Part shown: positions 2,737 through 20,881 of the stretch, one piece after another
Layout of the letters: each line of letters begins with the position of its first letter
Numbering within the stretch: position 1 is the stretch's first letter
Source of the DNA: a virus
DNA: 64,000 nucleotides
Strand: one strand, 5' to 3'
IMG/VR virus record: IMGVR_UViG_3300047491_001507
Position numbers and translations under genes: made by a program
The notes under the pieces: generated by a model
What the model saw: only the letters and a program-made list of their open reading frames with translations
Told to the model about the DNA's origin: nothing
Database searches by the model: none

Positions 2737-3510
2737 TTAGATTCCTTTTTTCTGTTGATATTTTCCCTTGTAAATCTTCGCTCTACATTCTTTGCAAATA
2801 CATTTTTTGACACTAAAAGCATCCAAAGAAAGTACTCTACCACAAGTATTACATTTTTTCAACCCTTGTTCTGCAAGTGGATCAATTTTCTTTGGTTTAG
2901 GTTTACTGCCGCCAATGTGACCACCTTCCCACTCACAAATGTATCGGCCATTTTTGGCAACATTTTTGTCATGAGTTAATCGAAGGGCTTCGTGAGTGCA
3001 ATTACAGAATTGACACTCGACCAAAATTTTGTCGGTGGCTATGTGTTTGTGATAATATTTTTTGGATCGTTTTGAGTCCATTTCTTTGCGATATGCAACA
3101 TAATCTACACCTACAAGTTCACTGATATATTTATCTGCCCATTTTTTAGCATAATATTCATTCTTAAAACCAAGATCTGTTTCTGTCCAAATAATAAAAT
3201 CATAACCATGATCTAAAGCATATTGCCGATTGTCTTCAATTTGTTCTGAAAATTGTCCAAGACGACGAACAGGTTTCACCTCGATAATCTTCTTTGTTCC
3301 ATTTTTAAAATACACAATAAAATCAATAATTCGTTTGTTTCCATTAATTTCAAAATGAATTTGTGTTTCATAAAATGCGACATCATTATTTTCATCAAGC
3401 ATTAAACATGCTTTAAGTTCATAAGATGAACAACAATAAACTACTCCTGCTTTATCTGACTTGTGATAATGCCTTCTGACATATTTCATATTAGATGTAC
3501 TTTCACTCAT
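2737..3510 (-). CDS. PD-(D/E)XK-type endonuclease with C-terminal zinc ribbons, a possible free-standing homing endonuclease
   Basis: IDFIVYFKNGTKKIIEVKP gives a D..E.K nuclease motif. The C-terminus has CQFCNC and CNTCG...CICKEC Cys clusters. It lies immediately downstream of the major capsid gene. Confidence 0.4.
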   Translation of the reverse strand: MSESTSNMKYVRRHYHKSDKAGVVYCCSSYELKACLMLDENNDVAFYETQIHFEINGNKRIIDFIVYFKNGTKKIIEVKPVRRLGQFSEQIEDNRQYALDHGYDFIIWTETDLGFKNEYYAKKWADKYISELVGVDYVAYRKEMDSKRSKKYYHKHIATDKILVECQFCNCTHEALRLTHDKNVAKNGRYICEWEGGHIGGSKPKPKKIDPLAEQGLKKCNTCGRVLSLDAFSVKKCICKECRAKIYKGKYQQKKGI

Positions 3511-8941: not shown

Positions 8942-9693
8942 TGTTAAAATTAGAAAGAGTTAAAAATATTATTTGTGTGATTTCTTTTCACACTTATGGT
9001 TGGATTGAACCATGTTTTGCTGATTTACAAAAATATTGTTACAATAAGCCGCTATTAATGATTGATAACAATCCTTCTTGGGATGATTCATATGAAAGAT
9101 GGTGTACTTATGAATGTCATCCCGCATCTTGCTGGAAACCTCAATGTGAAGACGAAAGAAACTTTATTGAAAGTCAACGAAGTTATATTGAAAGCACTGG
9201 AGGTGCTATTATTCAAACAGAACGTCGTCTTTATCACGGAAATGTCATTGATTGGGCTTTAGAATGGTGCAAAGCGAATAAGTTTCATACTATTACGTTA
9301 ATTGAGCCTGATTGTAATATGACAGGCGATCTTTGGCTGAAGAATTTAGAAGATGCAATACTTAGAGGCTATTGGATGGCTGGAACACATACTACTTTTC
9401 ATAATGCAATTCATCCTTTTGGATCGATTTGGAGAATTGATAAAATTTCAACTAGTTTTCATGCTCAACCGAATCGTGAAATTAGAAACCTTAAAGAATT
9501 TAATAAAGTTTGTGGTCCATACGAAGAACCTTATAATATTTGGAATCGTACCAATTGGGACACTGGACTTCGTGGATGGTATTTAATAGCAAGGCAAAAT
9601 AAGGCAAAATTAGTAAAAGCCCCAGATATCAAACATTACTGGGGCGGTTCATATCGTCAAAGAAAATACACAGAACGATTTGAGAATTTTTAA
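8941..9693 (+). CDS. hypothetical protein, possibly a GT-A-like nucleotide-sugar transferase
   Basis: 250 aa. Its start overlaps the previous stop (TAATG). ICVISFHTYG...LLMIDNNPSWDD and LIEPDCNMTGD loosely resemble the GT-A N-terminal and DxD-like motifs. Confidence 0.3.
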   Translation: MLKLERVKNIICVISFHTYGWIEPCFADLQKYCYNKPLLMIDNNPSWDDSYERWCTYECHPASCWKPQCEDERNFIESQRSYIESTGGAIIQTERRLYHGNVIDWALEWCKANKFHTITLIEPDCNMTGDLWLKNLEDAILRGYWMAGTHTTFHNAIHPFGSIWRIDKISTSFHAQPNREIRNLKEFNKVCGPYEEPYNIWNRTNWDTGLRGWYLIARQNKAKLVKAPDIKHYWGGSYRQRKYTERFENF

Positions 9694-12305
9694 TCTTCTT
9701 CTGATACATCAATCTCTTCTTCGTCCATTTCTTGAGCATAATCTTTAATTTCTAGATCATATTTTTTGACATCATCCTCATTAACATCAGGAATTGTAGA
9801 CATATCATTGCTGCCGTCCTCTTCCTCTTCATCGTCCATATATTTCCTCATGCCCATCGGAGGTGGCCCTCCTGGAGGTGCTCCACCCATTTCTGGTCCA
9901 CCTGGAGGTGCCCCGCCCATATCTGGCCCCATTGGAGGTCCTGCTGCCATAGGCCCGCCCATAGGTCCACCTGGAGGTGCTCCCATAGATCCGCCTAACA
10001 TAGGACTGGGTCCGGTCGGTTCTGTTCCGACTTCGGTTTCATCAGATCCTGGCAATCCTACGCCCAACAGGGTTGGATTCTGAGCAATGATTTGCAGTTT
10101 GAGATCTTCCAGTTTCTGAATCTTAAGTCTGGCCAGCATTTTCTCTGCTTCTTCTTCTGAGTACTTTAACAATTTGATCATAATGTCATAATCGCTCATT
10201 AATTGAGAGCTTTTCAGATTAGAAGCATTAGTTAAACGGTTGGTAACGACTTCGGCTCTGGTGAGTTCTCTCCAATCAGAAGGAGGCGTCATTTTAACTT
10301 GTAAATCTTCGTAAGATTCTTCTGGATAGCCCAATAATTTCAAATGTCGATCACAAATTTCCCATAATGCATCTTCAATATGAGATTGTAGTCGTTCAAT
10401 CATTCTGGCAAATTTGATGTCTTGTGCCGACAGAGCGATTCTGGTGCTTTGTGTGTCTTCATTGTTGAAATAGTTTCTGGGGAAATTTAAAGAAGTAAAT
10501 AGTTTATTGCGGAAATAAATTGTATCATCTACTTCGCCTAAATTACTAGCTCCAGGCAATGTTTCTACTTTCGTATTGGAATTTGGACGAATAGGAATCC
10601 AGTAATCCTCATCTACCGCAGGAGCGTGCCATCGTTCTTCTACAGATGAAGCACCTGGAATTTGACTGCGATTAGGCACTTTCTTTTTCTTGAATTGGTC
10701 CTTCATTCTTTCCATAAATGCTTCTGCTTTAAAGGGAGGCATTTGCTGAACGTCAATATAAAACACACGACGTTCTGGGCTTCTGGAAAGTCTATAGACC
10801 ACCATAGAATCTTCCATTAATCTTAATTGATGGGCTGGACCTCTAGCTGGTTCAATTAAACTTACGCCATACGGATAGAAAGTGCTACGATCATCTCCAA
10901 TACGAATATGTACAATTTGTTCTGGAGCGAATCGGATAGCAGTAGCTTGTTGTAAATCAGCATCTGTAGCTTGAGTGATTTCTACTCGTGCCAGACTTTG
11001 ATAATCTGGACCTTCTTTAGATTGCTGAAATTCGACTAATTTGCCTTTAGTAGTTTCAATACGATACATGCTATCTGGAGGAAGGGGCACCAAGCCAATA
11101 ACTCCATACTTGGGATTTTCTATGTCAATTATAATTTCCCAAAAGAAATCGCCATTGATAAAAGTACGTTTGGTAATATTCCATATTTTCTTTTGGTCAA
11201 AGTTGAGCATATTACGATGGAAAAACAAATATTCTAATTCTTTTTTAATGCCTTCATTTTTTAGATTAATGGTAAATACTCTTCCGTCATCATCACGTTG
11301 GCAATTATGAACTACGCCCCAATCAGTGCAGAAATTTTGGTGTTTTTCAACAGACAGATCAAAGACTTCTCTTTCTTTTCCTTCTAAGACAGCAATAACA
11401 TGTCGTCTGTCGCTTTTAGCACCAAGCCATTTCATTTCTTTGTTGGAAAAGCCTGCTCTTTCGATGCGATCTTGAATGGTATGCAGATCATTGCCTGTCA
11501 TCTTTTGAATTTGGCGAACAGATAAGCCTTCGGCAATCATTTGACAATAGTGATTGACGATTTTTAATTCTTCATTAGTTTTTCCAGTTCTCCATTCATC
11601 AATGAATTGTCGTTCATGAATCCAGCCTTTATCATGGGTCCAAATTCTAGGAAACTGGTTGGTTTTTAGTCCTGTAAGGTCTTGATTGGCAGGAAGGTGA
11701 TAAAAAGGCATTAATTCAGCACCATATTCTAAACTTCCTGCTTCAATCCAACTACCATCTCTGGTTAATACACGATGATCTGGAGTACAAATCAATTCCT
11801 GTCCATTATCAAATAAGACTCTTATTGTTTTGGCGATTTTAGTTAAACGAGGGTTATAGGCCCATGCAAGGGTATAATCTCTTTTATCAAAATCATAGGC
11901 ATATACTAGGAAACGTTCGGTAGGATCTGTGTATTTTTCTTTAAGATGGCGTATGGTTTTAAACCCATGTGGGGTAGCAACTTTAGTTCGTCCTGCAAGA
12001 CAAGCTTCGTCAGCAAATACGGTCATAGCCATTTCAATTTCTGGCATATTTCTTAATCGTTCATATTCTTTATAGCGATTAACACGATTGGTAACAGTAG
12101 ATAAATCAACAAAGTCATTAGTATCTCTTAGTCGTATGGCTCCTTTACCACCGCCCCAAGAACCATCTTGACCAGCACGAATATCAGGAATGGCATCTGT
12201 TTGTGATGTACCGGCACCGACTGGATCTTTTTTGTTTTGTTTGCTAAGAGGATCTTGGGCGAAAGCATATTGAAAAAGTTTGAAAAAATCGTACCAAGCT
12301 GCCAT
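9690..12305 (-). CDS. portal protein (putative) containing a mini-intein
   Basis: It lies directly downstream of the terminase on the same strand and is the size of a portal once the intein is removed. I use the start at MAAWYDFF, which is preceded by AAGGAGT. The C-terminus is Gly/Pro/Met-rich low complexity followed by an acidic tail. Confidence 0.5.
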   Translation of the reverse strand: MAAWYDFFKLFQYAFAQDPLSKQNKKDPVGAGTSQTDAIPDIRAGQDGSWGGGKGAIRLRDTNDFVDLSTVTNRVNRYKEYERLRNMPEIEMAMTVFADEACLAGRTKVATPHGFKTIRHLKEKYTDPTERFLVYAYDFDKRDYTLAWAYNPRLTKIAKTIRVLFDNGQELICTPDHRVLTRDGSWIEAGSLEYGAELMPFYHLPANQDLTGLKTNQFPRIWTHDKGWIHERQFIDEWRTGKTNEELKIVNHYCQMIAEGLSVRQIQKMTGNDLHTIQDRIERAGFSNKEMKWLGAKSDRRHVIAVLEGKEREVFDLSVEKHQNFCTDWGVVHNCQRDDDGRVFTINLKNEGIKKELEYLFFHRNMLNFDQKKIWNITKRTFINGDFFWEIIIDIENPKYGVIGLVPLPPDSMYRIETTKGKLVEFQQSKEGPDYQSLARVEITQATDADLQQATAIRFAPEQIVHIRIGDDRSTFYPYGVSLIEPARGPAHQLRLMEDSMVVYRLSRSPERRVFYIDVQQMPPFKAEAFMERMKDQFKKKKVPNRSQIPGASSVEERWHAPAVDEDYWIPIRPNSNTKVETLPGASNLGEVDDTIYFRNKLFTSLNFPRNYFNNEDTQSTRIALSAQDIKFARMIERLQSHIEDALWEICDRHLKLLGYPEESYEDLQVKMTPPSDWRELTRAEVVTNRLTNASNLKSSQLMSDYDIMIKLLKYSEEEAEKMLARLKIQKLEDLKLQIIAQNPTLLGVGLPGSDETEVGTEPTGPSPMLGGSMGAPPGGPMGGPMAAGPPMGPDMGGAPPGGPEMGGAPPGGPPPMGMRKYMDDEEEEDGSNDMSTIPDVNEDDVKKYDLEIKDYAQEMDEEEIDVSEED
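9840..10020. repeat. imperfect ~33-nt tandem repeats encoding the Gly/Pro/Met-rich portal C-terminus
   Basis: cctggaggtgctccacccat, cctggaggtgccccgcccat and cctggaggtgctcccatag are repeated units. Confidence 0.5.
11304..12002 (-). other. intein of about 233 aa inside the portal gene
   Basis: Block A is CLAGRTKV. Block B is TPDHRVLT, the TxxH motif. Block G is VVHN followed by the +1 Cys (CQRDDDG). The middle region is HTH-like (SVRQIQKMTGNDLHTIQDRIERAG). No LAGLIDADG or HNH motif is present. Confidence 0.6.
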
Positions 12306-12362
12306 ATTAACTCCTTGACGATACTGTATTATAGTATATTTATGAAAAACACAACAATAATC

Positions 12363-12701
12363 ATGACTCACCTTTGTTCAGGTCATGAGCAATTAATAAA
12401 TGAGTTAATGAAAAACCCTCATTTTGATCACTTTGAAACTAAAGGTCTTCATCATTATGATGACTTCCAGATACTATTTAATAATCCGCATCGCAAAAAT
12501 GATAAAAAAGCGGTTTGGGGAACGACTATTTTTCATAATCAAGACCTAACATGTTTTTCATTAATCAAACATTGTAATTTTATTTATTATAGTAAAAAGT
12601 ATGATCCTAGTATGTCCATCAGTGCTTTATCTTATCGATATAGAATTACGGGTATGAAGATTTGGCATAATAGAACAGGCGGTGAATGGTTAGTCGTTTA
12701 G
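12363..12701 (+). CDS. hypothetical protein filling the gap between portal and the upstream gene
   Basis: This is the only ORF that covers the 12306-12689 gap. The start at MTHLCSG has no clear Shine-Dalgarno site. Confidence 0.2.
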   Translation: MTHLCSGHEQLINELMKNPHFDHFETKGLHHYDDFQILFNNPHRKNDKKAVWGTTIFHNQDLTCFSLIKHCNFIYYSKKYDPSMSISALSYRYRITGMKIWHNRTGGEWLVV

Positions 12702-13052
12702 AAGTTGGTTATCAGTTTCTGTTTCGTTAGATTGTTTCTCTAAATCTTTAATCTTTTGTTGTTCTGTTGAAATCATAGCATTCAATTTCTCTAGTGATTT
12801 TTTAGCTTCAGCAATACTAGTAACAGGCATATTGGCTACTCCTGCTTCAATATTTTTCCACCAACTTTCATGTTGAGTTTGATTGGCTTTTCTTTTTTGG
12901 TATTGGCTTTGTTCTATTTCTTCAATATTTTGCAAAGCTCTTTTGATGTTTTTCTTAGCTTCCATTGTGGCAGGACATTGTGGCAGATAGGAAGTTGCTC
13001 CTAATGCTTGTGTGAGAAGACTTTTGGCACGTTTGATTTCTGTAAAATTCAT
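12690..13052 (-). CDS. hypothetical coiled-coil protein
   Basis: 120-aa ORF between the terminase and portal genes. Confidence 0.4.
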   Translation of the reverse strand: MNFTEIKRAKSLLTQALGATSYLPQCPATMEAKKNIKRALQNIEEIEQSQYQKRKANQTQHESWWKNIEAGVANMPVTSIAEAKKSLEKLNAMISTEQQKIKDLEKQSNETETDNQLLND

Positions 13053-13072: not shown

Positions 13073-14887
13073 TCACCACCCGAACTCCCTCAAGAGATTA
13101 TCATTTGCTCTTCTTTTATAGCCAGATCCAAATAACAAATCATCATCATCAGAACGATTGATATTTTCAAAAAGCTGTAATTCCTCACCTTCTGAAAAAT
13201 CATTGATATTTTTGGCTAATTCTTGTTTGATTTCTTCATAGATTTCTGCTTTAAATACTTCGGTATATTGATTTGTATCTCCTAAAACGGGAGATTGTCG
13301 CATGGCAACATCTCTAGCATATAATGCTAAGCACAATGCCATAATAGCGTCATCATGAAAACCTTTAGTTGCTTCTGCTCGTTTTGTTTGGGAATTCCAG
13401 ATAAAACCTTTCAATTCTTTAACAAACCGCCTGCTACGAATAGCAATGCTTTGGTTGACCAATCTAGTTTGCATAGTTTCTAAGAAAGTAGAACGATTGC
13501 TGCTAGTGGTTTTAATTCCTGGCTTAGAGTTTCTACCTTGAGAACTTTCAAACAGGTTGTCATAATAGAAATCGTGTTGTAGTTTTTCTAGAACTGTTAA
13601 GCCAGCACTTTGACTTTCCACAACGATGATAGCGTTATTATAAGTTTGTCCAACCATAGCAAGAATTTGAGCAAAATGGTGAGGTGGACAGATATTGCTA
13701 TAAAATTCTGCTACTTGTTCACAGGTCACAGCATCAATTACTTCAAAACAGCTATTATCTCCTTCCTCGCCCATGCCTTCAGCAGCATCTACGCCAATAA
13801 TATAATCTCGTCCCTCAATAGGTTCTCGCCAAATATACAAGGCACCACGAATCCAGTTTTCCACATCTGTAATACGTTGCTCTTTTATTTCTCCACGATT
13901 ATTCCATTGAGGAAATAGCATTTTAGTGGGTTCAATTTCTCGTGTAATTATATCTAGATCATTGATAATATCTGGAGGAATATAAGAATCGCCAGCCCCC
14001 AAGAAGTCACGCATAACTTCTTGTAGCCAGCCTTTTTCGCCTAATTGGGCACGAGTTTGCTTGACCCATTCCTCATCGTCGTAATCTGGATGTTCCCAGT
14101 AATCCAATTCAATTACGAAGAAGTCATTTTCGCCTTTTTTCGCTCCCATGAATGTGTCATAGTACCAATTACCCACGCCATTTACCGTGGAGATACAAAT
14201 GCAGTGACCACCAGTACTAATGGTGGGGAACATAGCTTTCCAATGTTTTTCCATTTGTGGAACGTATGCAGCTTCGTCTAGAATAAGATAAGTGATAGAA
14301 CGTCCACGAGCAGCTTCGGGGGTGTAGAAGAATAATTTACAGCCAGTATCGGAGAAGATTTTTTGGTGGTCATTATTTTTCTCCATTTCGGGCTTCATCC
14401 AGCTTGGCAACTCGATTAAAGCACGTTTAGCAACTTCTCCAGCGGCAATAGCTTCACGATCAGACTTAGATAGAACCATAATGGTTTCATCTAATTTAAA
14501 TAAGCATCGCCAAATAGCCCAAATAACAGTAACGGTGGTCAAACCTCCTTGACGGAATTTTGAAAGAATGTTGAATCTTTGATTTTCATATTCTTGACAG
14601 CAGCGACGTTGATACTTATAAGGGATAAAAGGAATTAGACCACGTTTAGGATGAGCGATCTTAATATACTTATGGCAGAAATAGGGGAAGGACATAGCAC
14701 ATTTGAGCAGTTCCCTCTGTCTAGTTTCTGCATCATAGGCTTCAATTTCTTCGAAGCTTTCTAAAGGATCTATCTCTAATTCATACTTATTGAATTCATA
14801 ATATTTTGGATCATATTCATTGAGATAGAAATCTTTTAAATTGGTATATTTTTTCTTCCAATTAGGATCTATTTCTTTAAAAGGCAC
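13073..14887 (-). CDS. terL: terminase large subunit
   Basis: GTG start after TTAAGGAG. ATPase motifs are SKFRQGGLTT (Walker A-like) and ITYLILDEAAYV (Walker B). Nuclease-domain motifs are IIGVDAAEGMGEEGDNS and KGFHDDAIMAL. Confidence 0.8.
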   Translation of the reverse strand: MPFKEIDPNWKKKYTNLKDFYLNEYDPKYYEFNKYELEIDPLESFEEIEAYDAETRQRELLKCAMSFPYFCHKYIKIAHPKRGLIPFIPYKYQRRCCQEYENQRFNILSKFRQGGLTTVTVIWAIWRCLFKLDETIMVLSKSDREAIAAGEVAKRALIELPSWMKPEMEKNNDHQKIFSDTGCKLFFYTPEAARGRSITYLILDEAAYVPQMEKHWKAMFPTISTGGHCICISTVNGVGNWYYDTFMGAKKGENDFFVIELDYWEHPDYDDEEWVKQTRAQLGEKGWLQEVMRDFLGAGDSYIPPDIINDLDIITREIEPTKMLFPQWNNRGEIKEQRITDVENWIRGALYIWREPIEGRDYIIGVDAAEGMGEEGDNSCFEVIDAVTCEQVAEFYSNICPPHHFAQILAMVGQTYNNAIIVVESQSAGLTVLEKLQHDFYYDNLFESSQGRNSKPGIKTTSSNRSTFLETMQTRLVNQSIAIRSRRFVKELKGFIWNSQTKRAEATKGFHDDAIMALCLALYARDVAMRQSPVLGDTNQYTEVFKAEIYEEIKQELAKNINDFSEGEELQLFENINRSDDDDLLFGSGYKRRANDNLLREFGW

Positions 14888-14934: not shown

Positions 14935-15816
14935 TTAATCTAGGAACTTACAGAGGTATTCTTGTTGCCAGCCTTTTTGTCCTAATCCTGCTTTGAGTTG
15001 TTTTACCCGATCTTTGTTGTTTGGATCATCACGATAATCTAATTTGAATTTTTTGAATCCATGTCTCTTAGCGTTTGTAAACACATTATGGAACCAGTTG
15101 TTTTTGCCGTTTGGAGTGGAGAAGCAAGCACAATGTCCATTTTTACTAATGATTGGAAGCAAAGATTTCCAACATTCATCCATTTTCGAAATGAATGCAA
15201 CTTCTTCCATAAATAAATAATCGATAGAACATCCTGGGCTTAATGTATGAGAATTAAGAATAAATAATCTACTATCAGTATTAATATTGCAGAAATTTTT
15301 TGGACGGACATACATTTCTGGTTTCATCCAAGCGGGAAGTGCTTCCAATGCATATTTTATGATGTTTTCTATATCAAGGCATTCTCTTTCATGTCTCACC
15401 ATAATGCTAATCGTTTCATCTGGTTTAAACGAAAATCGCCAAAGGCTGTATATTGCATTGAGAGTACTGAATCCGCCTTGACGGAATTTTGAGAAAATAC
15501 TAAAGTTATTATTTTCATATGCTTTAACACAACTTCGTTGACAGTTATGCAGGATAAATGGAACCAAATCTTGTTCAGGGCGTCTGATTTTTACATATTT
15601 GTGGCAAAAATAGGGGAAGAATGCAGCACATTTTAGGATTTCTTGTTTTTGGATTCTTGTGCTGTATGCTTCAATTTCTTCTTTAGTTTCTAGAGGATCT
15701 ATTTGGAGTTCGTACTTATCAAATTCATAATATTTTGGGTCATATTCATTTCTATAAAAGCTTCCCAGAAATGGGTATTTTTCTTTCCAATTTGGATCTA
15801 CTCGTTTAAAAGACAT
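14935..15816 (-). CDS. terminase large-subunit ATPase-domain paralog that lacks the nuclease domain
   Basis: It aligns along its full length with the N-terminal ~300 aa of TerL (VDPNWKEKYPFLGSFYRNEYDPKYYEFDKYELQIDPLE vs IDPNWKKKYTNLKDFYLNEYDPKYYEFNKYELEIDPLE; SKFRQGGFST vs SKFRQGGLTT). Walker B reads YLFMEE where TerL has YLILDE. I chose the ATG after TTCAGGAGAAAA as the start. Confidence 0.6.
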   Translation of the reverse strand: MSFKRVDPNWKEKYPFLGSFYRNEYDPKYYEFDKYELQIDPLETKEEIEAYSTRIQKQEILKCAAFFPYFCHKYVKIRRPEQDLVPFILHNCQRSCVKAYENNNFSIFSKFRQGGFSTLNAIYSLWRFSFKPDETISIMVRHERECLDIENIIKYALEALPAWMKPEMYVRPKNFCNINTDSRLFILNSHTLSPGCSIDYLFMEEVAFISKMDECWKSLLPIISKNGHCACFSTPNGKNNWFHNVFTNAKRHGFKKFKLDYRDDPNNKDRVKQLKAGLGQKGWQQEYLCKFLD

Positions 15817-15884
15817 TTTTCTCCTGAATATTTGTTTCAATAGCTATAATACATTATAGTGTTTTAATCAGAAAAAGAGGAAAT

Positions 15885-16982
15885 ATGAAAAAAGAACTGC
15901 TAATTGTTGGGATTATTATTGTTGACATATTAGTTGTCGTTTGGGCATATGACAAACGAAAAAATAAAGTAAATATAGAGAACAAGCCAACTAACAATTC
16001 GATTACTCAAATAGACCCAATTGTTCCTCCTAAGCCCACTTATACCTTGCAAAATGCTATAGATTCTATTAAGGCAGATGGGTTGAAAAGTATGGTCGAG
16101 TATCTTTCGAGCGATGAGCTTGAAGGCAGGAAGACAGGTTCGCCTGGAATGGAAAAGGCCAGAGATTTTCTGCTTAAAGAATTAACAGACTGCAAATTGC
16201 CAGCAAAAACCGATGTGTTTAAATTAATTTCGGCTAAGGGCGAAAATGTATATGCATGGATGGAAGGCAGCGAGAAAGGCGATGAGATAGTGGTAGTAGG
16301 AGCACATTATGATCATTTAGGAAAGAAGGCTGGCAAAATCAATCCTGGTGCAGATGACAATGCATCTGGCACAGCCGCAGTTTTGGCAATGGCTAAAGCA
16401 TTATCTAAATTGCAAGGACAAAATAAAAGAACAATTGTATTTCAGTTTTATGCTGGAGAAGAGCAAGGTTTATTAGGAAGTGAATTTTATGTTGAAAATC
16501 CAAAATTTCCATTAAAAAATCCTTCCATTAAACAGCATATTTTCATGGAAAATTTAGACATGATTGGGCATGGCAATTTTGAACAGGCATCTTCGATAGA
16601 CAGTCCAATAAGCGGATTGATCAATAGCTTTAAGGACAAATATCCATTTGCTGCAAAAATTACCACTGATGGATCAAACGGTTCTGACCATGCATCATTT
16701 CGAAGGGCTGGAGTGCCTGTTATAATGATACATACAGGACTTCATGGTAAATACCACACACCGGCAGACAAACCTGATACGTTAAATTATAAGAATATGG
16801 AAAAAATTACTCAATTTGGTCTTGAATTACTTTGGGAAGTTTGTCAGAATGGCACGAACATTAAGGTGAGTGATATTCAGGTTAGATCCGAAGCGTTTTT
16901 GGATCATGGTGTTACTCCGTTTGAAAAAGTTATCGATCATGCCACTGAAAGGAAAGACGATGAATTACAAAGAAAGAATTAA
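15885..16982 (+). CDS. M28-family zinc aminopeptidase with an N-terminal membrane anchor
   Basis: Motifs are GAHYDHLG, GADDNASGTAAVLAMAKAL, EEQGLLGSEFY and LDMIGHG. The N-terminus has the TM helix LLIVGIIIVDILVVVWAY. An AAGAGGAA Shine-Dalgarno site precedes the start. Confidence 0.7.
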   Translation: MKKELLIVGIIIVDILVVVWAYDKRKNKVNIENKPTNNSITQIDPIVPPKPTYTLQNAIDSIKADGLKSMVEYLSSDELEGRKTGSPGMEKARDFLLKELTDCKLPAKTDVFKLISAKGENVYAWMEGSEKGDEIVVVGAHYDHLGKKAGKINPGADDNASGTAAVLAMAKALSKLQGQNKRTIVFQFYAGEEQGLLGSEFYVENPKFPLKNPSIKQHIFMENLDMIGHGNFEQASSIDSPISGLINSFKDKYPFAAKITTDGSNGSDHASFRRAGVPVIMIHTGLHGKYHTPADKPDTLNYKNMEKITQFGLELLWEVCQNGTNIKVSDIQVRSEAFLDHGVTPFEKVIDHATERKDDELQRKN

Positions 16983-20524: not shown

Positions 20525-20881
20525 ATGAGGTATCGAGAAGAATCTTGGTCAGAATGGCTAGAAGAGGCATGGTTAGAAGAAGCAAAAGGCGATTTTATTC
20601 CAACAGTTCAATTTGAATTGAATGAAGACGATGACGACGATGAAGACGATTGGGATGACGATGACCAAGATGATTATGACGATGACGACTATGATGACGA
20701 CGACTATGATGAAGATGATTATGACGATGATGATTATGATGACGACTATGATTGGAGCAATGGCAGTTTTGATGATGAAGATGAAGATGAAGACGAAGAT
20801 GACGATTATGATTACGACGACGATGATTATGACGATGATGACGATTATGATTATGACGACGACGATGAAGACGACGAATGA
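20525..20881 (+). CDS. extremely acidic D/Y-repeat protein
   Basis: 118 aa. A WLEEAWLEEA N-terminus is followed by about 85 aa of DDDDY and DED repeats. The underlying DNA is tandem GATGACGACGACTAT-type repeats. Confidence 0.5.
   Translation: MRYREESWSEWLEEAWLEEAKGDFIPTVQFELNEDDDDDEDDWDDDDQDDYDDDDYDDDDYDEDDYDDDDYDDDYDWSNGSFDDEDEDEDEDDDYDYDDDDYDDDDDYDYDDDDEDDE

Follow-up and report, generated by a model that had tools for sequence, protein, structure and literature searches.

A tandem, ATPase-domain-only paralog of the large terminase with replaced catalytic residues in a huge T4-like phage

Two arrangements in cultured phages come closest to the gene described here, PAR, a 293-codon open reading frame (ORF) located directly upstream of the large terminase gene terL in a stretch of 64,000 nucleotides (the window) from the IMG/VR virus record IMGVR_UViG_3300047491_001507. 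In the Sinorhizobium phages phiM12, M7 and M19, gp17.2 is a truncated paralog of the ATPase domain of the large terminase (TerL), whose gene has the orientation of terL and immediately precedes it; for phiM12, GenBank lists it as a truncated TerL-like ORF between gp16 and gp17, and it is 34% identical to the N-terminal ATPase part of its own gp17 (E 1e-34). Among the matches listed from the cultured-phage collection, these three phages were the only ones which PAR matched at two places of one record. In the Xanthomonas jumbo phage XaC1, ORF353 (239 residues, Terminase_6N only) directly precedes the full-length TerL ORF354, to which it is 31% identical (E 1e-19); XaC1 and XbC2 have been reported to encode a tandem of two large-terminase homologs and to lack a small terminase (PMC11273794). 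An earlier note on this DNA had known of no described split or duplicated TerL arrangement; the annotation of phiM12 gp17.2 and the report on XaC1 and XbC2 correct this statement. In the literature, we found no functional study of such TerL paralogs.

PAR has the architecture of phiM12 gp17.2 and XaC1 ORF353, i.e. that of an ATPase-only TerL paralog which directly precedes terL in the same orientation. It is orthologous to neither of them, as the best matches of each of the three are full-length TerLs, in the case of PAR those of its own clade. In contrast to PAR, gp17.2 comprises 196 residues and ends at the C-motif without a lid; it retains the canonical GKT, the arginine of the RG pair and the DE pair, is placed between a recognisable gp16 small terminase (TerS) and gp17, and is of independent origin (28% identity to the TerL of the window). 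XaC1 ORF353 resembles PAR in being catalytically degenerate (the Walker A lysine is replaced by threonine, the catalytic glutamate by asparagine) and in lacking a close ortholog in other cultured phages; it differs in that it stems from another phage lineage, is shorter, has lost other residues and has kept the RG arginine. Judged by their sequences, the tandem ATPase-only TerL paralogs are independent duplications. The architecture arose at least three times, and has been annotated but never analysed.

PAR is encoded on the minus strand, with an ATG start codon at 15816 and a TAA stop codon at 14935-14937; the JGI gene call P0001 is the identical 293-residue protein. A BLASTP comparison with the adjacent TerL of 604 residues gave 145/298 identities (49%, E 9e-99) and spanned residues 1-292 of PAR and 1-296 of TerL with small gaps only, which means that the similarity covers the whole domain and not a short stretch of low complexity. 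The end of PAR coincides with the start of the linker connecting the ATPase and the nuclease domain of TerL. Accordingly, Pfam assigns Terminase_6N (112-304) and Terminase_6C (364-523) to TerL and Terminase_6N alone to PAR, for which the score is 23.6 bits (cut-off 22); a Terminase_6C nuclease domain was not matched by Pfam in PAR, whose ORF stops at the equivalent of TerL residue 296. With an E-value of 4.8e-15 against T4 gp17, PAR is a homolog of the TerL-type N-terminal ASCE ATPase domain. The earlier note had read the ORF at 14935-15816 as a tandem paralog of this domain without a nuclease domain, aligning with the N-terminal part of TerL, and both BLASTP and Pfam agree. The AlphaFold2 model of PAR has a mean pLDDT (predicted local distance difference test) of 92.6. 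Its best matches in the PDB, as determined by Foldseek, are the ATPase domain of T4 gp17 (TM, i.e. template modelling, score 0.71-0.73) and then other TerL ATPase domains; the predicted fold is that of a complete ATPase domain. As every frame of the 47-nt spacer between PAR and TerL has a stop codon, the two are distinct proteins, and a fusion via read-through or frameshift is ruled out. An assembly artefact was rejected as well, as the DNA identity of the two copies amounts to no more than 62% and both JGI and Logan assemblies contain the protein.

With respect to fold and domain limits, PAR resembles the ATPase domain of T4 gp17 (PDB 2O0H, 3CPE), aligning with gp17 from residue ~96 to residue ~311. 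The order of the motifs is common to both: YQ, P-loop, Walker B plus catalytic glutamate, C-motif. Unlike this domain of gp17, PAR is encoded by a gene of its own; the lysine of GK[ST] is absent from its deviant Walker A (KFRQGG[FL][ST]T), and the trans-finger arginine is lost; moreover, its Walker B glutamate resembles the crystallised, hydrolysis-dead ED mutant of T4. The P-loop of PAR is of the type found in its clade: K110, R112 and G115, which are invariant in 111 full-length TerLs, are all present, and so are the C-motif residues S233/T234. Hence the earlier note was right in stating that the Walker A-like SKFRQGG and the C-motif (ST) are kept. The whole TerL clade possesses the deviant Walker A KFRQGG[LF][TS]T, in which the position of T4 K166 is occupied by leucine. 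The upstream invariant lysine (K110) of this motif recalls the shifted lysine of lambda gpA.

At the other catalytic positions, PAR departs from TerL. The adenine-binding glutamine noticed before is present (Q93), though the adjacent tyrosine is now a cysteine (Y92C); in all 111 full-length TerLs, this position is Y or F. In Walker B, LFMEE of PAR stands against LILDE of TerL, confirming the replacement of the aspartate by glutamate (D204E) at a position that is D in 109/111 full-length TerLs. In T4, even an exchange between Asp and Glu in Walker B prevents packaging; the ED mutant can bind but not hydrolyse ATP (PMC3012670). The third exchange, R194P (AARGRS of TerL vs LSPGCS of PAR), concerns the arginine finger, whose position is R in 108/111 full-length TerLs. 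The TerL segment PEAARGRS aligns with PDNLRGAT of P74-26, in which R139 is the trans arginine finger (PMC5389665); the 4znj chain with an alanine at this position is the R139A mutant. Of the intact catalytic set of TerL, E205 is the only residue kept in PAR. By analogy with the mutants of T4 and P74-26, we infer a loss of ATPase activity. As its fold is kept and catalytic residues are replaced, PAR fits the definition of a pseudoenzyme.

The distribution of the exchanges is uneven. In an alignment of 52 full-length TerLs, 93 columns are conserved to at least 95%; PAR departs at 31 of them, full-length TerLs at no more than 7. For residues 1-57, where the TerLs themselves are variable, PAR keeps 16 of 17 conserved positions; for residues 131-200, where the TerLs are almost invariant, it keeps 33-37%. 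This inverted pattern of constraint suggests a loss of motor chemistry combined with the retention of an N-terminal interaction surface.

PAR and terL are 62% identical at the nucleotide level, the values for codon positions 1, 2 and 3 being 0.62, 0.72 and 0.52. The nonsynonymous divergence (dN) is 0.39 and the synonymous divergence (dS) 0.93 (LWL85) or 2.3 (NG86), which results in a rough dN/dS of 0.17-0.4. In addition, neutral drift from terL was simulated in 2000 runs with substitutions only. At the observed divergence, ~15 in-frame stop codons accumulated and 0/2000 runs stayed open; if half of the divergence was assigned to the PAR branch, there were ~9 stops and one run out of 2000 stayed open. 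Based on dN/dS, the codon-position pattern and the simulated survival of the ORF, PAR is a maintained gene under purifying selection and not debris. The recent pseudogenised duplicate which the earlier note had considered does not agree with an ORF that is intact, old and constrained.

PAR is 46-49% identical to each of ~40 TerL orthologs and no closer to its own TerL. It shares only one of 18 residues that are specific to the latter, and at six of these positions it has the ancestral residue of the clade. Three-point branch lengths were 0.40-0.44 for PAR and 0.07-0.11 for TerL, which, uncorrected, means a rate about 4-6 times higher for PAR; they place its origin near the node between the TerL of the window and the closest sampled relatives. 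These branch lengths and the sharing of derived residues were used instead of a midpoint-rooted neighbour-joining tree of 228 ATPase domains, in which PAR was found among long branches, a placement that we dismissed as long-branch attraction. The fraction of shared codons was 0.59 for PAR and TerL compared to 0.37-0.42; with the codon usage of the window as null model, this excess corresponds to z = 2.1 and is too weak to lend good support to a recent copy or to gene conversion.

A trace of the duplication event may be seen in the leaders of the two genes. The 9-mer GATTAAAAC is located at the same distance from both start codons (see Table 1), and the copy in front of terL, which contains the stop codon of PAR, is likely the duplication junction. 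Both leaders also contain a TAATA(A/G)C-like element, which is likewise conserved in front of the terL genes of relatives. For the leader motif CTAATAACTA, the window showed no enrichment (89 matches vs 89 expected), and scans of the window for sigma-70 promoters and terminators gave background levels.

The genomic context of terL was compared with that of related phages. The loci consisted of 47 from IMG/VR (TerL 47-77% identical, flanks of up to 8 kb per side), 80 from metagenomes (TerL 49-78% identical, flanks of up to 4 kb per side, 61 of them with at least 1 kb upstream), and three further ones from protein-sequence look-ups (L003, L005, L006); some contigs are present in both the IMG/VR and the metagenome collection, and the total is ~130. 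In none of these loci is there a second ATPase-domain ORF near terL, which answers the search of related phages that the earlier note had proposed. Even phages whose TerL is 78% identical have no PAR beside terL; PAR thus lacks the character of a single-copy core gene which marks TerL. In at least 39 of the relatives' loci, a divergently oriented gene of an M28 peptidase lies directly upstream of terL, which indicates that it is the ancestral upstream neighbour. Because the M28 gene directly abuts terL in relatives, PAR is an insertion into a conserved gene pair. This result also contradicts the earlier view that PAR sits where TerS is normally encoded, since that slot is empty in the clade. 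To judge from these loci, PAR is dispensable across the clade, whose other members package DNA without it.

Orthologs of PAR were not found beyond these loci either. Collections built from ~15 billion predicted proteins contained none with more than 50% identity. Peptide-pattern scans of IMG/VR and JGI metagenome contigs, a word-indexed search, and phmmer run exhaustively against 1.84 billion representatives gave nothing nearer than TerLs; an exact look-up of the protein P0001 returned no record. The short paralog of the closest relative, P0110, was ruled out as an ortholog (30% identity) and is itself an orphan without a close ortholog. Among the relatives, two short contigs from sister samples deserve mention: the TerL N-termini encoded by L004 (1136-1786) and L003 (1265-2344) are identical over 95 residues, beyond which they abruptly become dissimilar, so that the identity across all 209 aligned residues is 72%; this is either a mosaic 5' end of terL or a chimeric assembly.

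The most parsimonious scenario is a single tandem duplication that included the terL leader and ~292 codons and generated the stop codon at its junction. It would have occurred in one lineage of huge T4-like phages, with the 3' breakpoint in the linker following the ATPase domain, and the duplicated leader would have provided the stop codon of PAR (GAT-TAA inside GATTAAAAC). The copy would then have been retained as a translated gene with a changed role: its motor chemistry is degraded through the Walker B D to E, Tyr to Cys and finger Arg to Pro exchanges and the replacement of about two thirds of the near-invariant positions in 131-200; the fold and the N-terminal ~100 residues are preserved. 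The product is most probably a non-motor accessory subunit, either ATP-binding or catalytically dead, whose N-terminal and lid surface would bind the partners of TerL, namely other TerL subunits, the portal clip, a small-terminase-like partner, or DNA; such binding might tune the assembly or the initiation of packaging. A role of this kind is plausible because the ATPase domains of T4 and P74-26 bind DNA when isolated (PMC5389665) and the T4 motor copes with one to three dead subunits, though its kinetics are changed (PMC9958956). In summary, we lean, with modest confidence, towards PAR being an old, duplication-derived and motor-degraded pseudo-ATPase that tunes packaging via its TerL-type N-terminal surface.

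Several points weigh against this interpretation. As dS is near saturation, the omega values are rough, and selection was measured on the paralog pair PAR-terL, no orthologs of PAR having been found. The high confidence of the AlphaFold2 model is partly due to an alignment rich in TerLs. The P-loop arginine, the catalytic glutamate and the C-motif are intact, which makes a residual ATPase activity possible. With respect to the origin, the 9-mer GATTAAAAC may be a conserved leader element and not the scar of a breakpoint, the remainder of the two leaders has diverged (16/56 identical, shuffle p 0.73), and a recombination with a related co-infecting phage could equally have yielded the same structure. 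Finally, the loss of activity, the partners and the regulatory role assigned to PAR are all deduced from sequence.

Of the three roles offered by the earlier note, the regulatory pseudo-ATPase fits best in view of the degenerate catalysis and the purifying selection, and the substitute for TerS fits poorly. In the latter case, PAR would act when packaging starts, gripping or recognising the DNA of the phage and recruiting or activating TerL. The gene is indeed located directly upstream of terL like gp16 in T4, no TerS family was matched in the neighbourhood, tight DNA binding is known for isolated TerL ATPase domains from P74-26 and T4 (PMC5389665), and XaC1 with its analogous tandem paralog is reported to lack a TerS (PMC11273794). 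However, the position relative to terL in a T4-like gene order is all that PAR has in common with a small terminase of the gp16 type: there is no relation in sequence or fold, PAR having an ASCE ATPase fold for which Pfam gives Terminase_6N only, and the slot is empty in the ~130 loci of relatives, including those with 78% identical TerLs. A required partner would be conserved with TerL across the clade, which PAR is not; phiM12 has both gp16 and gp17.2; and a conserved gene of a 120-residue coiled-coil protein beside terL is the better positional candidate. We therefore give this role the least credence. Because relatives lack the tandem copy, PAR is accessory and not the clade's small terminase; nor is it a second motor. 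An active ATPase, acting as an extra motor or helper subunit in mixed TerL rings or alone, would explain why K110/R112/G115 of the P-loop, the catalytic E205 and S233/T234 of the C-motif are kept; the predicted fold is complete, and the T4 motor tolerates heterogeneous rings (PMC9958956). We nevertheless regard it as clearly unlikely: Walker B D/E exchanges abolish packaging in T4 (PMC3012670), the trans-finger arginine has become proline and the adenine-stacking tyrosine cysteine, 31 of 93 near-invariant positions differ, and the C-terminal domain for moving DNA is missing.

Two further explanations do not assign a role in packaging to PAR. It could be the functionless leftover of a partial duplication heading for decay, as its confinement to one lineage, its absence from all sampled relatives, its evolutionary rate 4-6 times that of TerL and the lost catalytic residues might suggest. 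An intact ORF of 293 codons in a genome with 35% guanine plus cytosine, at 38% nucleotide divergence, where neutral drift predicts 9-15 stop codons, makes this very improbable; moreover, the conservation by codon position (2 > 1 > 3), a dN/dS below 1, the 16/17 conserved N-terminal positions and a Shine-Dalgarno sequence of its own argue for function. Alternatively, PAR could serve in counter-defence, as a decoy for or a shield from host proteins that sense the ATPase domain of TerL (Avs1-3, Upx). Short TerL-like paralogs are restricted to particular lineages, evolve fast and have originated repeatedly and independently; terminase ATPase domains on their own are bound by EcAvs2 (PMC13601566); and an Avs3-terminase complex is among the fold matches of PAR. 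But isolated ATPase domains activate EcAvs2 and do not block it (PMC13601566), no such decoy is described in the publications consulted, and nothing at the locus ties PAR to defence, so that this explanation, a pure conjecture, hardly deserves more credit than decay.

PAR is not the only short TerL-like protein. An exhaustive search gave at least 31 TerL-like representatives which end no more than 15 residues from the ATPase domain, typically with ...QE.L..F, ~40 with a tail of 20-140 residues after this domain (most often 40-55), and 45 of 460-560 residues, whose C-terminal domain is mostly unlike the nuclease domain of the window's TerL; two proteins of the latter group were tested and gave no Pfam Terminase_6C match. 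The arginine of the finger is present in 108/111 full-length TerLs compared to 12/31 short, 17/41 tailed and 24/45 mid-length representatives. Where the context is visible, the genes of these non-canonical proteins lie inside long phage contigs without adjoining terL, and some contigs carry a canonical and a non-canonical TerL together. Each short protein is as near or usually nearer to full-length TerLs than to other short ones. The dispersed short proteins (P0005, P0110, P0250/P0252, ~70 representatives) resemble PAR in being ATPase-only and fast-evolving, in having the same ...QE.L..F boundary and in the frequent loss of the arginine finger; unlike PAR, they are not adjacent to terL, and none is an ortholog (identity of 39% at most).

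Several observations on these proteins may be added. One subfamily of short ATPases shows a conserved synteny of its own in contigs of 390, 340 and 35 kb, namely the genes for a C39-like peptidase, a protein of 275-335 residues and the short ATPase, in this order. In the three-gene block of 340-390-kb phages (L008/L009 8364-10876, L010 8515-10867), the TerL-like ATPase is a protein of 288-291 residues with a tail of 38-40 residues. P0218 (on a 691-kb contig) and P0229 (148-kb contig) comprise ~500 residues, combine Terminase_6N with an unrecognised C-terminal domain, and share their contigs with a canonical TerL; many proteins of the same size end with ...KLKxLF. The phage containing P0005, a short TerL-like protein of 336 residues, possesses seven head-to-tail ORFs of 65-68 residues (L001 14815-16191, minus strand).

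The features of the locus are compiled in Table 1. The window covers part of the T4-like module of head and packaging genes of a huge phage; for the source contig, a length of 306 kb is on record, and the best match among cultured or deposited phages is an uncultured phage of 595 kb. On the minus strand, PAR is followed by TerL (orthologs of which are 65-79% identical), the 120-residue coiled-coil protein, and a gp20-type portal protein with an intein. Beyond the portal gene there are two unassigned plus-strand ORFs and an ORF of 560 residues, a gp21-like prohead protease, an ORF of 297 residues, a gp23-like capsid protein, and a TnsA-like nuclease. The coiled-coil protein has a WWGNV..AG motif, ends with ...QLLQD, and found no match in Pfam, PHROGs or PDB sequences; by position only, it is a possible TerS candidate of the clade. 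In agreement with the earlier note, which saw no recognisable TerS nearby, none of 11 neighbouring ORFs (~2.7-20.1 kb of the window, no more than 13 kb from PAR) matched a small terminase in Pfam or PHROGs. The M28 gene is divergently transcribed at a distance of 68 nt from PAR; a peptidase of this family is an unusual conserved neighbour for a terminase.

Table 1. Features of the PAR-terL locus and catalytic motifs of PAR
Feature	Position	Strand	Basis
PAR, 293-residue TerL paralog consisting of the ATPase domain only	14935..15816	(-)	BLASTP, Pfam, AlphaFold2
Shine-Dalgarno sequence AGGAG of PAR	15821..15825	(-)	sequence reading; 5 nt upstream of ATG
Codons C92-Q93, adenine-binding YQ motif, Tyr replaced by Cys	15538..15543	(-)	T4 gp17 alignment
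Codons K110-T118, clade-type deviant Walker A KFRQGGFST, kept	15463..15489	(-)	alignments
Codon P194, position of the trans-acting arginine finger	15235..15237	(-)	P74-26 alignment
Codons E204-E205, Walker B Asp replaced by Glu, catalytic Glu kept	15202..15207	(-)	alignments
GATTAAAAC at -53 to -45 of terL, containing the PAR stop codon	14932..14940	(-)	sequence reading
GATTAAAAC at -53 to -45 of PAR, within the leader common to PAR and the divergent M28 gene	15861..15869	(-)	sequence reading
TerL, canonical large terminase, GTG start, Shine-Dalgarno sequence AAGGAG	13073..14887	(-)	Terminase_6N + Terminase_6C; T4 gp17 E 1e-30
120-residue coiled-coil protein, directly downstream of terL	12690..13052	(-)	homolog 3' of terL in at least 28 relatives
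M28 peptidase gene, divergent	15885..16982	(+)	Pfam Peptidase_M28 E 1e-41

Apart from the packaging genes, the following was observed. The intein of the portal gene (9690-12371, minus strand) is recognised by Pfam Intein_splicing at residues 180-356 (CLAGRT...VVHNC), and the portal gene of the closest relative (L005 13219-15825) likewise bears an intein. The TnsA-like nuclease with a restriction-endonuclease fold (2737-3510, minus strand) adjoins the capsid gene and is probably the counterpart of a head completion nuclease of the T4 gp4 type that has been described in jumbo phages (PMC7824862). At 20525-20881 on the plus strand, an ORF of 118 residues consists nearly entirely of Asp, Tyr and Glu repeats (DDDDYDDDDY...).

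PAR is an independently evolved case of a little-noticed arrangement, the precedents of which are uncharacterised. The gene terL is used as a single-copy hallmark for phage phylogeny and even for flagging chimeric assemblies (bioRxiv 10.1101/2025.02.27.640493). ATPase-only terL paralogs which are selected and catalytically degenerate do exist; they arise by repeated partial tandem duplication, are numerous in metagenomes of huge phages, and call for caution in marker-gene pipelines that rely on terL. They also constitute a natural experiment revealing which parts of TerL matter outside catalysis, in the present case the N-terminal segment. As a tentative and on balance rather unlikely generalization, PAR might represent an unrecognised class of recurrently evolving, terminase-derived accessory proteins of large phages which dock on or join the packaging motor. 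Its members would have the ATPase fold, often without the arginine finger, and might serve as non-firing subunits of mixed rings, as competitors for portal or TerS that set the time of initiation, or as shields from immune systems that sense TerL. If such a class exists, the packaging motor of huge phages would not always be a homo-oligomer of TerL; and if these proteins enter or regulate the motor, they would add an unstudied layer of control to DNA packaging in large phages.

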